A stretch of DNA of 64,000 nucleotides from Acidobacteriota bacterium (GCA_016178075.1 JACOUA010000329.1:3539-67538), one strand, 5' to 3'. Positions 7,577 through 57,974 are shown, counted from the first letter of the stretch. Numbers and translations: made by a program. Notes: generated by a model not told the origin, from the sequence alone.

Positions 7577-8323
7577 TTACGCGCCGGATCTTGCTTGTTT
7601 CGTCCGGTCATCTGCGAACGTCTCGATGATGCGTTCGGCCTCGGATCCCGTCGCCCGCCGACTGGCCCGCTCGGCGATGACAATCGACCGCAGCCGCTCG
7701 ACCGCCGACTCGAGCTCGTCGTTGATCACCAGGTAATCGTACTCACGAAACGCCCCGACTTCCTCACGTGCGACTGCCAGCCGCCGCCGAATTTGCGCCT
7801 CGTCGTCCTGGCTCCTGCCCCTCAGTCGCCGCTCCAGGATGGCGAACGAGGGCGGCAGGACGAAGATCGACGTGGCCGGAATGCCGCGCTCGCGCACCTG
7901 GCGCGCGCCCTGCACGTCGATGACCAGGACCAGATCCTCGCCGCGTGCCAGGACCCGCTCGGTGTCGGCCAGCGCGGTCCCGTACAGGTTGCCGAAAACG
8001 TCGGCCGACTCCATGAACTCGTCGGCCCCAATCATCGCGTCGAAACGCGCCCGACTGATGAAATGGTAGTCGACCCCGTCGATTTCGCCGGCCCGCACCG
8101 GCCTCGACGTGTACGATCGCGACATCCGCAGGTTCGGCACTCCCTCGATCAGCCGCTCGACCAGCGTCGTCTTGCCGGTACCTGAAGGCGCGGAGACGAC
8201 GAACAACAATCCCCGCCTCTCGACAGGCTCGAGGCGCCCTGCGCCTGTCGTCCCTCGACCGGGCTCGGGACGACCCTGTGGCTCTCGAAAAGTCGGGCGG
8301 CGACCTGCTGGCTCACTCGACAT
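7577..8323 (-). CDS. gmk: Guanylate kinase with a repeat-derived N-terminal extension
   Basis: P-loop SAPSGTGKTTL and SRSYTSRPVRAGEIDGVDYHFI. There is no start codon between the repeat and the P-loop, so the ~35-codon extension (..REPQGRPEPGRGTT..) must be translated. Confidence 0.9.
   Translation of the reverse strand: MSSEPAGRRPTFREPQGRPEPGRGTTGAGRLEPVERRGLLFVVSAPSGTGKTTLVERLIEGVPNLRMSRSYTSRPVRAGEIDGVDYHFISRARFDAMIGADEFMESADVFGNLYGTALADTERVLARGEDLVLVIDVQGARQVRERGIPATSIFVLPPSFAILERRLRGRSQDDEAQIRRRLAVAREEVGAFREYDYLVINDELESAVERLRSIVIAERASRRATGSEAERIIETFADDRTKQARSGA
8225..8290. repeat. GC-rich palindromic repeat (GTCGTCCC-N12-GGGACGAC core) inside the gmk 5' coding region
   Basis: GTCGTCCCtcgaccgggctcGGGACGAC at ~8247-8274. 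Same family as 11775-11870 and 16340-16500. Confidence 0.85.
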
Positions 8324-10957: not shown

Positions 10958-11072
10958 TACTCAGTCTTCAGTTTTCAGTTTTCAGTTTTCAGTTCTAAAC
11001 CTGCGACCTGAAGCGAAGGACGGGTCACCTTGTCAACTGATAACTGATAACTGAAAACTGATCACTACTCAG
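10957..11072. repeat. Heptamer-periodic inverted repeat, word CAGTTYT / ARAACTG
   Basis: Left arm CAGTCTTCAGTTTTCAGTTTTCAGTTTTCAGTTCT, ~35-nt spacer, right arm AACTGATAACTGATAACTGAAAACTGATCAC. Lies between the GT2 stop and the ABC exporter start. Confidence 0.85.
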
Positions 11073-11868
11073 TAAAACGATACTTGATGAGCACCCAGAG
11101 CGCGACCAGTCCGTCGTGCCAGGTGATTTTCTTCCCTTCCTCGTACCCCCGGCCGTCGTACGTGATCGGGACTTCGTACACCCGGTAGCCCCGCTTGAAC
11201 ACCTTCGCCGTCAACTCCGGCTCGATGCCGAAGCGCTGCTGCTTCAACTCCATCGATCGCAGCACGCTCGTGCGCATCACCTTGTAGCAGGTCTCCATGT
11301 CGGTCAGCATCGTGTTGTAGAGCAGGTTGGTCACGAGCGTCAGGAAGCGGTTGCCGAGGTAGTGACTGAAGAGAAAGACCCGGTGGCGGCCGAGAAAGCG
11401 CGAGCCGTACACGACGTCCGCGCGCCCCTGGCAGATGAGCTCGATGAGTTTCGGATACTCCTCGGGCGAGTATTCCAGATCCGCGTCCTGTACGACGACG
11501 ATATCGCCGGTCACGTCCTCGAAACCGCGGCGCAGGCCGGCGCCCTTCCCGGCGTTCTGCGGCTGCAGGATCAGCTTGAACCCCAGCTCACGGTTCAATC
11601 GCTGCAGGATATCGGGGGTGAGGTCGGTCGACGCATCGTCGACGACGATGAGCTCGATCCTGAGCGGCACCGCGACCACCCGGCGGATGATTGCCTCGAT
11701 CGTCTCCTGCTCGTTGAAGACGGGCATCACCACCGACAGCAGCGGATTGGTGAGCGTGCCTCGAAGGCCTGCCCTGAGCTCCGTTGAGGGGCCCGACCTG
11801 GGCTTCGTCGTCCCTCGGCTGGGTTCGGGACGACCCCGAGGGTCTCGAGGGGTCGAAGGGCCCGGCAT
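11065..11868 (-). CDS. Glycosyltransferase family 2 (polyprenol-phosphate sugar transferase-like) with a repeat-derived N-terminus
   Basis: LSVVMPVFNEQETIE, VDDASTD, VVQDADLEYSPEE. The ORF track runs to 12039, but ATG at 11868 overlaps the galE stop (TGATG). The first ~35 codons (..PRDPRGRPEPSRGTTKPRSG..) are a palindromic repeat. Confidence 0.85.
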   Translation of the reverse strand: MPGPSTPRDPRGRPEPSRGTTKPRSGPSTELRAGLRGTLTNPLLSVVMPVFNEQETIEAIIRRVVAVPLRIELIVVDDASTDLTPDILQRLNRELGFKLILQPQNAGKGAGLRRGFEDVTGDIVVVQDADLEYSPEEYPKLIELICQGRADVVYGSRFLGRHRVFLFSHYLGNRFLTLVTNLLYNTMLTDMETCYKVMRTSVLRSMELKQQRFGIEPELTAKVFKRGYRVYEVPITYDGRGYEEGKKITWHDGLVALWVLIKYRFTE

Positions 11869-11870
11869 CA
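11775..11870. repeat. GC-rich palindromic repeat at the galE/GT2 junction
   Basis: GTCGTCCCtcggctgggttcGGGACGAC (~11807-11834), flanked by CCTCGAG/GTCGAAGGG-type outer repeats. Confidence 0.85.
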
Positions 11871-15710: not shown

Positions 15711-15811
15711 CAGTTCTCAGTCATCAGTTCACAGTTCTCAGTTAAGGCGAGGACTGACAGACAACCGAGAACACCCTGAGAACTGATAACTGAAACCTGA
15801 TAACTACTGGT
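15711..15811. repeat. Heptamer-periodic inverted repeat, word CAGTTYT / ARAACTG
   Basis: CAGTTCTCAGTCATCAGTTCACAGTTCTCAGTT ... CTGAGAACTGATAACTGAAACCTGATAACTACTG, between two co-directional GT4 genes. Confidence 0.85.
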
Positions 15812-15814
15812 CTT

Positions 15815-17080
15815 GTGATGCACATCGCCATCGACGCCCGTGAGCTCTGTGGCCGGCCGACCGGCGTTGGGCGGTATCTGTCCCACCTGCTCACCGCGTG
15901 GGGAGATATGGCCGAAACACGGGGCCACCGCTTCACGTTGTACACGCCGGCGCCGATCGACATCCAGACCGTGGCCCCCCGGGCACGAGCGCTCGATCTC
16001 GTCGTGCAGGTCATCGGCGGCCACCCGGGAGCCATCTGGGAACAGATTCGTCTTGCTTCGGCGCTGCGTCGCGATCGTCCGGACGTCCTCTTCGCGCCGG
16101 CCTACACGTCACCGCTGCGGTGCGGCGTCCCGACGGTGTTGACGGTTCACGACATCTCGTTCGAGGCGCATCCGGAGTGGTATCGCTGGCGTGAAGGCAC
16201 GCGCCTGCGCTGGCTGACGCGCAGGGCCGCGCGGGCTGCTCGCCTGGTGCTGACGGATTCGGAGTTCTCGAAGCGCGAGCTCGTCGAGCGGATGGGCATC
16301 AGCGCCAACGCCATCCGCGTCATCCGTCTGGGGGTCAGCGAGCCACGCCCTTCGACCGTTCGACCCTTCGACAGGCTCGGCGTCGTCCCGAGCGCGGTCG
16401 AGGGAGGAGAGCCACAGGGTCGTCCCAAGCCCAGTCGGGGGACGACGGCGCCCGACGCAGGCCCGTCGACGACGCCCGGGGCACGCGCGTCGCAGGCGGA
16501 GCGCGAGCCGCTCGTGTTGTTCGTCGGATCGTTGTTCAACCGGCGGCGTCTCCCGGATCTGTTGAGCGCCTTTCGCGACCTGACTCGAACCCATCCGGGG
16601 GCCAGGCTCGAGATCGTCGGGGAAGACCGCACATACCCGCACCAGGATCTTGCGGCCCTCGCCGTGCGACTGGGGATCCCGGAGCGAGTGTCGCTGCGAT
16701 CGTATGTCAGCGACGAGGAGCTGGTGCGCCTCTACGAGCGAGCCAGCGTCTTTGGATTTCTGTCTGAGTACGAGGGCTTCGGTCTGACGCCGCTGGAAGC
16801 CCTCGCCGCGGGCGTGCCGATTGTGGTGCTCGACACGGCTGTCGCCCGAGAGCTGTATGGCGATGCGGCGGTCTACGTCGGGCGCGGCGACGTTGGCGGG
16901 ACCGCAGCGGCGCTCGCGCAACTGATATCGGACGCCGACGCGCGGCGGCGGCGGCTCGACCGCGCGGCGGTCGTGCTTCGCGGGTTCTCCTGGTCCGAGG
17001 CAGCGCGTCAGACGCTCGAGGCGCTCGAAGCGGCCCACAGTCCAAAGCCCCCGTCCGGACTGCCTCATCAAGCCTCATGA
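15815..17080 (+). CDS. Glycosyltransferase family 4 carrying an in-frame palindromic-repeat insertion in the interdomain linker
   Basis: N-domain MMHIAIDARELCGRPTGVGRY. C-domain LVLFVGSLFNRRRL, EGFGLTPLEALAAGVPIVV. Between them sits ~45 aa of repeat-encoded sequence (RPFDRLGVVPSAVEGGEPQGRPKPSRGTTAPDAGPSTTPGARAS). Confidence 0.87.
   Translation: MMHIAIDARELCGRPTGVGRYLSHLLTAWGDMAETRGHRFTLYTPAPIDIQTVAPRARALDLVVQVIGGHPGAIWEQIRLASALRRDRPDVLFAPAYTSPLRCGVPTVLTVHDISFEAHPEWYRWREGTRLRWLTRRAARAARLVLTDSEFSKRELVERMGISANAIRVIRLGVSEPRPSTVRPFDRLGVVPSAVEGGEPQGRPKPSRGTTAPDAGPSTTPGARASQAEREPLVLFVGSLFNRRRLPDLLSAFRDLTRTHPGARLEIVGEDRTYPHQDLAALAVRLGIPERVSLRSYVSDEELVRLYERASVFGFLSEYEGFGLTPLEALAAGVPIVVLDTAVARELYGDAAVYVGRGDVGGTAAALAQLISDADARRRRLDRAAVVLRGFSWSEAARQTLEALEAAHSPKPPSGLPHQAS
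16340..16500. repeat. GC-rich palindromic repeat (two modules) inside the GT4 coding sequence
   Basis: CCTTCGACaggCTCGGcgtcgtcCCGAGcgcgGTCGAGGG, followed by GTCGTCCCaagcccagtcggGGGACGAC (~16419-16446). Confidence 0.85.
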
Positions 17081-56147: not shown

Positions 56148-57050
56148 CTAGCCGCCGCCCGGGGGTCCCTCGGTCCCCGGGGGGGCCGGCCGCCTGCGAC
56201 CTCGGCGGCGGCGCCGACGACGGCCGAGCACGCGGCGGACCTCGTCATAGACCTGCTCGTAGTGTTCAAGGCCCTGCCGGACCTCGTCCGCTGTGACCCA
56301 CGAGTCGGGATCCAGGCGATCGGCTTTCGCCCGAAGCTCCTCCTGACGAGCAGGGTCGGACGTTCGCTCCGCGACCCTGGCCAGGATCTCCGCGTAACGG
56401 GCACGCAATCGGGCATGAGACTCCGGATCGAGGGCGTGAGTGGGTCGTGGGACAGGCTCGGCCTCGAGGTCGGACTCTGGCTCAGACTCCCGGCTGACGC
56501 CGGGCTCCTCCTCTGCCGCCACAGTGTGCAAGAGCTGTTCTTCCACTGCTTCTTCAGCCGGCATCACGTCAACGGGCTCACTTGGCTCAAGCGGGGCGAC
56601 CGGAGGTGCCTCGGATCGGGCGGCCATCGGCTGAACCGGAGGCCTCTGCCCCCCTCGACGACGCTCGGGGCGCCCCGAGCCCGAGTCGAAGGGCGGCCGC
56701 GCGGGACCGCTGCCTCTCGGCCGTTGCTCGACGGGGTTCGGGGCGCGCTGAGCGCGAGTCGACGGGCGCTGCCGGCGGCGAGGACCCTCGGCGCGATGTC
56801 GGGATTCAACGGTCGACGGCTCTGGTCGCGCCTGCAGGATTCGCTTCCAGTCGAACTTCAGTTCCGGATTGCTTTCCTCGATCGTGCGGATCGCGTCCTC
56901 GTCCAGCGGCGACCGTCCCACACGGACTCCGGGCGGCGTGCGAAACCAATAAAGGACACGCGGCTGCGAGCGCCCGCGGATCCGGAACGCGTGCATCAGG
57001 TACGTGTTCTCGTACCCGCGGGTATCGCGTGTAAAACGCAAGAAGGGCAT
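56148..57050 (-). CDS. Hypothetical protein: conserved-looking N-domain, disordered repeat-containing middle, Arg-rich tail
   Basis: MPFLRFTRDTRGYENTYLMHAFRIRGRSQPRVLYWFRTPPGV.. followed by low-complexity P/E/R-rich sequence that includes a palindromic repeat. No family recognised. Confidence 0.6.
   Translation of the reverse strand: MPFLRFTRDTRGYENTYLMHAFRIRGRSQPRVLYWFRTPPGVRVGRSPLDEDAIRTIEESNPELKFDWKRILQARPEPSTVESRHRAEGPRRRQRPSTRAQRAPNPVEQRPRGSGPARPPFDSGSGRPERRRGGQRPPVQPMAARSEAPPVAPLEPSEPVDVMPAEEAVEEQLLHTVAAEEEPGVSRESEPESDLEAEPVPRPTHALDPESHARLRARYAEILARVAERTSDPARQEELRAKADRLDPDSWVTADEVRQGLEHYEQVYDEVRRVLGRRRRRRRGRRRPAPPGTEGPPGGG
56652..56693. repeat. GC-rich palindromic repeat variant (CCCTCGAC..CTCGGGGCGCCCCGAG..GTCGAAGGG) inside a coding sequence
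   Basis: 16-nt perfect palindrome CTCGGGGCGCCCCGAG, flanked by the CCYTCGAC / GTCGARGG outer repeat. Confidence 0.8.
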
Positions 57051-57053
57051 TCT

Positions 57054-57173
57054 TGGCTATCAGCTATCAGCTGTCAGCTATCAGCTCCGCCTATCAGCGT
57101 CGGGAAGGCCGCACATCGGTGCGGCCGAAATCAAACGAGGATGCTGAGAGCTGAAAGCTGAGAGCTGTTAGCT
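57054..57173. repeat. Heptamer-periodic inverted repeat, word CAGCTNT / ANAGCTG, with a central GGCCGCAC-atcg-GTGCGGCC hairpin
   Basis: GGCTATCAGCTATCAGCTGTCAGCTATCAGCTC ... GCTGAGAGCTGAAAGCTGAGAGCTGTTAGC. Confidence 0.88.
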
Positions 57174-57176
57174 CGT

Positions 57177-57974
57177 TCACCGCCGCCTCGGCGTGCCGCC
57201 AGCTTTCTTCGACTGGGTCGTCCGGGCGCGCGTGCCGGCGCCTGGGCGGGCTTTCTTCGGCGCAGCCTTCGACCCGGGCTGCGAGCGCCCCGAGCCCCGT
57301 CGAGGGGCGGCGCGCCTCTGCGAACCTCGTCCTGCCGCCGCGGAACGCCGCGCGCGTGCTTCGGCGCCCTTCGACCTGGGCTCAGGGCGCCCCGAGCCTT
57401 GTCGAGTGGCAGCCGCCGAAGGCTGGCGAGCGCCGCGGTGCACCAGCGCGAATCGTGTCTGGTCACCGAGCGAGTGGTAGCCCCAGATCTCGGTGACCTC
57501 AATCTGATTGTCCGAACAAAGTCGGCGCGCCGCTTCCACCGACCCGCTCGGCACGTACAAGTAGAAAGGCGCGCGGAACCGAGCCATCGGCCCCCACTGG
57601 GCGAGCGCTTCCATATTGTTGACCGATTCACCGGTTTCCACCTCGACGATGCCGTGGATCTTCCGCCCACCGTGAAGCGAGGTGAGGACCAAATCGGGAT
57701 AGAGCGTCGCGGTCCCGGTTCCCGCGCTGGCGGTCTGCTCCGCCCCAAGGTTCGCGGCAACGTTGTACCGCCGGCGCCACCTCGCCTGGAGCTGCCGGAT
57801 CACACGGTCGTGTTCGAGCTGCTCCCTGACGGGGCGCACGAGGATGGGGCTCACGATTCCTCCATCGCTAAGCCTGCGGAGCCTGATTGGGGGGTCAGTC
57901 AGTGGGTAACCGAGCCCCAGACTATAGCATGAACCTCGAACCGTACCTGGGGGCAACGTGAACGCACCTTGCAT
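57177..57974 (-). CDS. Hypothetical protein, possible PD-(D/E)xK-like core, with a repeat-derived basic C-terminal tail
   Basis: The core ..VREQLEHDRVIRQLQ...LYPDLVL...GIVEVETGESV...FYLYVPSG.. loosely resembles a restriction-endonuclease-like fold (weak). The last ~90 aa are encoded by two palindromic repeat copies. The start is uncertain. Confidence 0.5.
   Translation of the reverse strand: MQGAFTLPPGTVRGSCYSLGLGYPLTDPPIRLRRLSDGGIVSPILVRPVREQLEHDRVIRQLQARWRRRYNVAANLGAEQTASAGTGTATLYPDLVLTSLHGGRKIHGIVEVETGESVNNMEALAQWGPMARFRAPFYLYVPSGSVEAARRLCSDNQIEVTEIWGYHSLGDQTRFALVHRGARQPSAAATRQGSGRPEPRSKGAEARARRSAAAGRGSQRRAAPRRGSGRSQPGSKAAPKKARPGAGTRARTTQSKKAGGTPRRR
57266..57409. repeat. Two tandem copies of the GC-rich palindromic repeat variant within the 3' part of the hypothetical gene
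   Basis: CCTTCGACCCGGGCTGCGAGCGCCCCGAGCCCCGTCGAGGGG and CCCTTCGACCTGGGCTCAGGGCGCCCCGAGCCTTGTCGAGTGG, about 100 nt apart. Confidence 0.82.

Follow-up and report, generated by a model that had tools for sequence, protein, structure and literature searches.

An in-frame palindromic repeat in the interdomain linker of a GT4 glycosyltransferase gene from an Acidobacteriota bacterium

Introduction

What fills the long linker between the two domains of a GT4 glycosyltransferase encoded by an Acidobacteriota bacterium, and how did it come to lie there? The gene occupies positions 15815 to 17080 of a 64,000-nt stretch of DNA (GCA_016178075.1, JACOUA010000329.1:3539-67538), which we call the window and from whose first letter all positions are counted. 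An earlier reading of this stretch from its sequence alone had proposed that a GC-rich palindromic repeat is inserted in frame in the linker, in the manner of the Rickettsia palindromic elements (RPEs). Our analysis indicates that the linker very probably holds an in-frame insertion of a hairpin-forming dispersed repeat that resembles repetitive extragenic palindromic (REP) sequences and is specific to Vicinamibacteria-type Acidobacteria.

The GT4 protein carries a disordered linker that its closest orthologue lacks

The open reading frame (ORF) at 15815..17080 (+) is intact, runs in a single frame and encodes a 421-residue GT4 glycosyltransferase of the GT-B fold. Pfam places Glyco_transf_4 at residues 17-175 and Glycos_transf_1 at residues 228-382, with no match between them, and an AlphaFold model confidently reproduces the two Rossmann-like domains (mean predicted local distance difference test score (pLDDT) 85.3, predicted template modelling score (pTM) 0.83). 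The conserved E-x7-E region is present, the EYEGFGLTPLEA block is invariant in the orthologue alignment, and an identical protein in a public collection (P0001) is annotated as GT4 in an Acidobacteria metagenome-assembled genome (MAG). The sole segment of the model with pLDDT below 50 comprises residues 178-226, which are modelled as coil only and sit between the last strand of the N-domain (167-169) and the first strand of the C-domain (233-237). As modelled, the insert lies in a disordered linker joining both Rossmann halves. Periodicity in GC content at third codon positions (GC3) marks both flanks as coding in one common frame, which stays open across the insert. Normal N- and C-terminal domains, a preserved reading frame and an interdomain position had all been claimed by the sequence-only reading, and each claim agrees with these results.

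Comparison with orthologues confines the extra residues to this linker. The listed orthologues are 355-414 residues long (most 355-395), versus 421 here. The three closest, at 76-80% identity, are syntenic, with the same GT4-GT4-GT2 gene order, and are 29-51 residues shorter. In protein and DNA alignments alike, the whole length gap falls after a shared CGCCCTTCGAC and before the conserved ..PVVLFVG strand. The ~117 nt are missing from the closest syntenic orthologue (L001/P0003); the sequence-only reading had named alignment with orthologues as a check for presence or absence of the insert.

The insert is a composite of repeat units

The insert lies inside the interval 16340-16500 first proposed for it and is narrower, at 16357-16473. 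Its 117 nt (39 codons) comprise a spare 8-nt head, a 45-nt unit, a headless 37-nt unit and a 27-nt tail. The parts of the insert and its entry site are as follows.

16348..16356, + strand: native CCCTTCGAC (codons P-S-T), common to orthologues in the DNA alignment with L001, L003 and L004.
16353-16356, + strand: putative insertion point, the 3' CGAC of native CCCTTCGAC, a candidate target.
16357..16364, + strand: extra head copy CGTTCGAC, 8 nt, seen as a direct repeat of CCCTTCGAC at 16348 and 16364.
16365..16409, + strand: unit 1, complete, 45 nt, found by two independent nhmmer profiles.
16410..16446, + strand: unit 2, headless tandem, 37 nt, found by nhmmer, with an 8-bp stem GTCGTCCC/GGGACGAC and a 37-nt period.
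16447..16473, + strand: tail, 27 nt, ending in GTCGACGAC, common to the tail of the GT2-proximal copy of the repeat.

Unit 1 has the sequence CCTTCGAC-AG-GCTCGGCG-TCGT-CCCGAGC-GCG-GTCGAGGG-AGGAG and is read in frame b as FDRLGVVPSAVEGG; unit 2 is read in frame a as EPQGRPKPSRGTT. Predicted peptides across the insert include LGVVPSAVEGGEPQGR and GTTAPDAGPSTTPGAR. The two units share a 37-nt tandem arrangement (16370-16406 and 16407-16443, 73% identical), the motif CTCGG..CCGAG lies at 16376-16392, and doubled heads of the kind seen here are frequent across the repeat family.

Two palindromic modules had been reported to recur elsewhere in the window, and they do. GTCGTCCC-N12-GGGACGAC at 16419-16446 is found again at 8247 and 11807, and CCTTCGAC..GTCGAGGG at 16365-16404 is found again at 56652(-) and 57266; each motif thus occurs three times in the window, against 0.01 expected from dinucleotide-preserving shuffles. 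The pairing of CCTTCGAC with GTCGAGGG is present as claimed, but one T.G pair makes the complement imperfect. Within the window, short-word blastn matches 16356-16486 to 8234-8300(-) and 11767-11860(-) with E = 1e-9 to 4e-12, and aligns 16407-16486 to 11846-11767 at 74% identity over 80 nt (E = 3.6e-12), an alignment that covers the tail.

Two nhmmer profiles, both made without window sequence, recover the same units. The profile built from genome copies finds unit 1 at 16356-16408 (E = 1.2e-11) and unit 2 at 16408-16449 (E = 2e-7), and the one built from metagenome units finds them at 16359-16412 (E = 1.2e-10) and 16415-16448 (E = 7e-5). Judged by these sequence matches, the GT4 insert belongs to a family of dispersed palindromic repeats. 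A GC-rich, low-complexity linker grown by slippage, or a MAG mis-assembled across a repeat, would be an alternative, and some features fit it: no part of the GT4 family varies more in length than the linker, a 37-nt tandem duplication is present in the insert, and the sequence comes from a MAG. Such an origin is nonetheless barely credible in view of E-values near 1e-11 and 1e-10 from other-genome models, the motif counts given above, and gene halves that are collinear and in frame with their catalytic residues conserved, which a chimeric join would not give.

The repeat family has a sharply bounded unit and a narrow host range

Positional conservation across 105 copies gives the family unit sharp bounds: CCTTCGAC-nn-GCTCAGGG-TCGT-CCCGAGC-nnn-GTCGAGGG-ACGAC. 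The unit is ~70% GC and folds into helices of 8 and 7 bp that flank a variable 2x3 internal loop and end in a 4-nt apical loop. Its arms are nearly invariant and its internal-loop spacers fully randomised. The unit ends in CGAC or CGAG, with GTCGAGGG followed by ACGA in 73/96 copies and by GCGA in 16/96. Among 63 parseable units, 51 are 45 nt long and the rest 46 nt, and CGAC immediately precedes 54; the 11 single intragenic units that were verified all measure 45 nt. A unit can grow head to tail through the addition of 37 nt, a whole unit less its head, which accounts for the tandems in GT4, L010, L012 and L019. At least two units occur at 33 loci, and only four of these hold units on opposite strands.

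A 28-nt core of the unit was found on 15 contigs among 185,579 reference genomes; all belong to Acidobacteria/Vicinamibacteria MAGs, and six come from one MAG. A 19-mer from another part of the unit matched at least 120 metagenome contigs and 0 viral contigs, and the canonical 91-nt element had no plasmid match. The repeat family is thus specific to Vicinamibacteria-type Acidobacteria among reference genomes and is abundant in metagenomes.

Reading frames and folding of the unit

All three sense frames of the unit are free of stop codons; on the antisense strand, TGA (from CCCTGAGC) interrupts one or two frames. The sense-frame peptides are rich in Gly, Pro, Ser, Arg and Thr (QGRPEPSRGTT, LRVVPSPVEGR and SGSSRAQSRDD). 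Between them, different hosts read the unit in each of the sense frames and, now and then, in an antisense one. The resulting peptides are unrelated, which speaks for conservation of DNA or RNA and not of a peptide. We considered whether the repeat might be a protein-level module, a conserved, flexible linker peptide that recombination has spread and whose amino-acid sequence is under selection, since similar peptides (QGRPEPSRGTT) occur in the same frame in three window copies. The variety of frames, the many intergenic copies, and conservation that tracks the DNA palindrome and no single reading frame make this highly improbable.

Copies from the genome collection that are intragenic or at the 5' end of a gene are all in sense orientation, and a second sample holds seven sense and two antisense copies (n = 9). 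A sense bias inside genes is expected because TGA blocks one or two of the antisense frames. We dropped the bias as a sign of a strand-specific mechanism, as stop codons alone predict about the same bias.

Canonical copies of the repeat form strong hairpins (z = -4.95 and -3.5, with 0/200 shuffles as stable). In the GT4 gene, the unit 1 hairpin is marginal (-26.6 kcal/mol, z = -1.9), unit 2 is weaker (z = -1.2), and the whole insert, taken as 145 nt, folds like shuffled sequence as RNA (z = -0.5) and as DNA (z = -0.4). The hairpin in the GT4 copy is largely decayed. A hairpin survives, marginally, in unit 1 and not in the insert as a whole, and we therefore set aside the GT4 copy as a candidate functional hairpin.

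These folding data also bear on whether the element has been co-opted at the level of RNA or translation, through ribosome pausing, mRNA stability or translational coupling, and kept by selection. The strongly conserved arms with randomised spacers, the stability of canonical hairpins, and two window copies that lie between co-directional genes in the downstream frame would all suit such a role, and REPs are believed to function at the RNA level (PMC3733652). The strands were compared in 16 copies, namely the three window copies (8247, 11807 and 16419) and 13 in L006-L019, and the antisense strand is more stable than the sense strand in 14 of them, by a mean of 3.6 kcal/mol. Stem spacers show no covariation (0.91 pairs observed versus 0.93 under the null). 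Together, the lack of covariation and the more stable antisense strand mean that nothing shows the hairpin to be selected as a sense RNA. The intragenic GT4 copy has moreover lost most of its stability, and insertions occur in many unrelated loops and not at domain boundaries alone. We consider co-option of this kind improbable.

In-frame copies occur in many unrelated genes and recur in a kinase loop

In the genome collection, in-frame copies occur in E2 acyltransferases from two MAGs, where they lie in the linker from the lipoyl to the E3-binding domain, in two PSD/DUF159x cytochrome-type proteins at different positions, and in a DUF1800 protein, a flavin oxidoreductase and an MFS-spermidine-synthase protein. 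In a metagenome sample, 9/75 copies are intragenic and in frame by a strict two-flank GC3 test, a figure that is an undercount since copies close to N-termini fail that test. Pfam places units from this sample within Pkinase, Peptidase_M13_N, GH116_N and BNR_2 envelopes, and a unit in uricase divides the Pfam match into two stretches. Loops and linkers hold most of the in-frame units. Many further copies sit between genes or just upstream of a gene with the same orientation.

At one further locus, L008:1536-4631 (+), a unit lies between Pec_lyase and amidohydrolase domains within one 1032-residue frame, and the two flanks share that coding frame. The unit may have brought about a fusion of two genes or may be an interdomain linker.

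Ser/Thr kinases provide a comparison of filled and empty sites. The beta3-alphaC loop is 28 residues long with the unit and 13 residues long in 112 unit-free homologues, a gain of 15 residues or 45 nt. The unit-bearing kinases (L028, L045, L048, L084 and L086; P0121) share the site ADP|[unit]|RxxRFxxEA, in which the ADP codons supply CGAC. They fall into three groups that are 46-56% identical to one another, and two of the groups have closer relatives with an empty site (64-68%). The loop was therefore hit independently at least two to three times, and on this alignment evidence the kinase loop is a case of recurrent gains at the same site.

The history of the GT4 site goes beyond a single clean insertion

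Two of the four close orthologues carry short element-like remnants at the site of the insert. The motif TCGAC-N-GCTCRGSRC occurs exactly once in each of L003 (565-581) and L004 (870-886), in the linker and in sense orientation, and the shortest orthologue (L001/L002) contains no element sequence. These head and left-arm motifs may be remnants or independent partial insertions. Their presence at the same site implies a history longer than one clean insertion.

The element may accordingly be old at this site, present in the linker of the common ancestor shared with the 76-80% identical orthologues and subject to lineage-specific decay, deletion and tandem expansion, in place of a recent arrival in this genome alone. 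The L003 and L004 motifs fit such a course, as do the head-like CGCCCTTCGAC in all four close orthologues and a window copy that is diverged and weakly folding. More distant orthologues have short, unrelated linkers, however, and the family profile finds nothing significant on L001-L004 (best E = 0.26). The kinase loop has been hit independently at one site, and repeated hits are equally plausible at GT4, where the native sequence offers ...TTCGAC. We regard an ancestral element as possible but the less likely history.

In a more distant orthologue (P0064, L020:2541-2660), the same linker holds a different, lower-GC 48-nt tandem repeat with inverted arms of 13-15 nt. The GT4 linker appears to accept foreign repeat DNA repeatedly.

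Other repeats in the window

Two further copies of the family lie in the window.

8220..8296, - strand: second copy, nhmmer E = 2e-14 (genome profile) and 5e-10 (metagenome profile).
11767..11861, - strand: third copy, nhmmer E = 1.6e-14 (11789-11861, genome profile) and 3.5e-7 (metagenome profile).

The second copy lies between the stop codon of a yicC-like gene (8313) and the Gmk core; it is in frame with gmk and has the predicted peptide EPQGRPEPGRGTT. The Pfam Guanylate_kin domain begins at residue 41 of the 248-residue gmk ORF. The third lies between the stop codon of a GalE-like gene (11868) and the GT2 core, with the predicted peptide DPRGRPEPSRGTT in the GT2 frame, and the Pfam Glycos_transf_2 domain begins at residue 102 of a long GT2 ORF. 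At both loci (gmk, 8220-8323(-); GT2, 11767-11870(-)), an ATG overlaps or abuts the stop codon of the upstream gene and its frame runs through the repeat into the downstream gene, giving putative N-terminal extensions of 36-43 residues. A repeat placed between genes and in the frame of the downstream one is an arrangement like that of the mycobacterial interspersed repetitive units (MIRUs).

GC-rich palindromes at 56652-56692(-), 57266-57306 and 57367-57406 form a related yet distinct subfamily, CCTTCGAC..GGGCGCCCCGAGC..GTCGAGGG. One lies inside the ORF at 56148-57050(-) and two lie in the C-terminal tail of the ORF at 57177-57974(-), and Pfam matches neither ORF. Long intergenic inverted repeats at 10961-11066, 15711-15805 and 57056-57173, with a GC content of ~48% versus 66-70%, form a second and unrelated class. 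Their arms of 26-32 nt are built of motifs with a 7-nt period, for example (TCAGTTT)n / (AACTGAn)n, and enclose spacers of 34-60 nt. The repeat at 15711-15805 lies directly upstream of the GT4 start codon. No Rfam family reached its gathering score anywhere in the window.

A model for the spread of the element

In our model the element would be a mobile, non-autonomous hairpin and would spread by insertion 3' of CGAC, with no obvious target duplication. By analogy with the HUH-type systems IS200/IS605 and REP/RAYT (REP-associated tyrosine transposase), mobilisation could proceed through a single-stranded hairpin intermediate; microhomology or template switching between CGAC repeats would be an alternative route. 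Intragenic copies would survive only where their length is a multiple of three, they contain no stop codons and the site is structurally permissive. We propose that the hairpin decays after insertion, which would be why the GT4 copy folds no better than chance. The added peptide is probably a neutral, disordered surface loop.

Several observations weigh against insertion of a mobile element as the source of the GT4 linker. We infer mobility from the distribution of copies and from recurrent same-site gains in aligned sequences, not from strain-level polymorphism. The source is a MAG contig, and translation of the insert is predicted from the reading frame. The greater stability of the antisense strand and the lack of spacer covariation, described above, also count on this side. 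The L003 and L004 motifs may mean that the element is ancestral at the GT4 site and later decayed or expanded, and did not arrive in one recent insertion; native CCCTTCGAC could itself be derived from the element. A search of ~0.72 Mb of loci for REPtron-like arrangements found no pair of units bracketing an ORF, although a distant single-copy RAYT is possible. No RAYT/Y1 transposase or other mobilising function was found near copies, a result that does not include a Pfam scan of all window ORFs for Y1/HUH.

We suggest, tentatively, that the element is an active, CGAC-targeting mobile hairpin adapted to life inside genes. If so, a 15-codon unit with three stop-free frames and hydrophilic, disorder-prone peptides would be able to colonise the coding sequence of a gene-dense genome. 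It would decorate certain protein loops again and again, as in the kinase beta3-alphaC loop, and act as a continuing source of surface loops and linkers in soil Acidobacteria. The best-known examples of in-frame colonisation by palindromes come from Rickettsia, which has a reduced genome and an obligate intracellular life, and from a few REP-rich species. Here the same behaviour is seen in an abundant, free-living, high-GC soil lineage and follows clean rules: a 45-nt unit, placed after CGAC, with three open frames. The family thus offers a tractable system for the tolerance of selfish DNA in enzymes, for the origin of linkers and loops, and for the enzyme that moves tag-bearing REPs, for which no transposase is known. 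The units also inflate or distort annotations in Acidobacteria MAGs through N-terminal extensions, split Pfam domains and possible gene fusions.

Comparison with known palindromic repeats

RPEs (Ogata et al. 2000, as summarised in PMC2229807 and PMC10969869) are the closest parallel in behaviour. They are 105-146 bp long and combine a long stem-loop with ~12-bp terminal inverted repeats (PMC2229807); 19 ORF insertions are given for R. conorii, and a gmk gene bearing an RPE stays active (PMC2229807; PMC10969869). Both families are dispersed palindromic repeats found between genes and in frame at permissive positions of conserved genes, where the ORF is kept and a peptide is added. In our family the conserved genes include those for GT4, E2, PSD, kinase, M13, GH116, BNR and uricase proteins. 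An RPE lies within gmk, and here a copy adjoins gmk. RPEs are confined to Rickettsia, an obligate intracellular alphaproteobacterium, with one conserved peptide each, whereas the present repeat has free-living soil Acidobacteria as its hosts, and any one of its three frames may be the one that is read. Its unit of 45 or 46 nt is far from the 105-146 bp described for RPEs, and the 117-nt GT4 insert is a composite. The parallel drawn by the sequence-only reading therefore stands for behaviour, in frame in many unrelated genes, and fails for size, as the unit is REP-sized and not RPE-1-sized. A sequence relationship with RPEs is not expected, and among reference genomes the core of the family is found only in Acidobacteria/Vicinamibacteria MAGs and so is not restricted to Rickettsia.

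CGTC-tagged REPs, which include RPE-4 and RPE-6, share structural features with the unit. A published catalogue of intragenic REPs, which encode 20-82 residues, covers Opitutus (O. terrae), Thauera, Rickettsia and other species (Di Nocera et al. 2013, PMC3733652). Their stems are 8-9 bp and start with two A/T pairs, the loop is 4-5 nt, the tail is CCA, and most form head-to-head dimers, with a negligible share of head-to-tail ones (PMC3733652). The antisense strand of our unit starts T-CGTC-CCTCGAC, like the unpaired tetranucleotide of these REPs; the tag corresponds to the ACGA or GCGA that follows GTCGAGGG, and it cannot pair with the CGAC at the other end. Further likenesses are the 4-nt TCGT loop, the lack of an associated transposase, and intragenic singles, dimers and clusters encoding 15-45 residues. 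The unit differs in its G/C-rich 8 + 7 bp stem with a 2x3 internal loop, in its CGAC tail in place of CCA, and in the nearly universal head-to-tail order of its multi-unit loci.

A hairpin with an adjacent conserved tetranucleotide, and apparent insertion by a fixed CGAC with no visible target duplication, recall the REPIN/RAYT system (REPINs being REP doublets forming hairpins) and the IS200/IS605 family. Like REPINs, the repeat is lineage-restricted and chromosomal, with no match in the phage and plasmid collections searched. It departs from them in the rarity of inverted pairs and in tetranucleotides that are CGAC and ACGA(C) and not of the GTAG type. [quoted passage not shown] MITEs are 70-300 bp long, carry 15-30 bp terminal inverted repeats and duplicate their target site, which is often TA; the present unit is 45 nt. 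In the kinases, the net gain from empty to filled site equals the unit, which leaves no room for a duplication if the preceding CGAC is native.

The repeat is absent from the families listed in PMC3733652, which lists no Acidobacteria REP of this kind, and literature searches returned no published description of the family in Acidobacteria. We class the repeat as a new family of an already known kind, that of palindromic repeats carried in frame inside genes.

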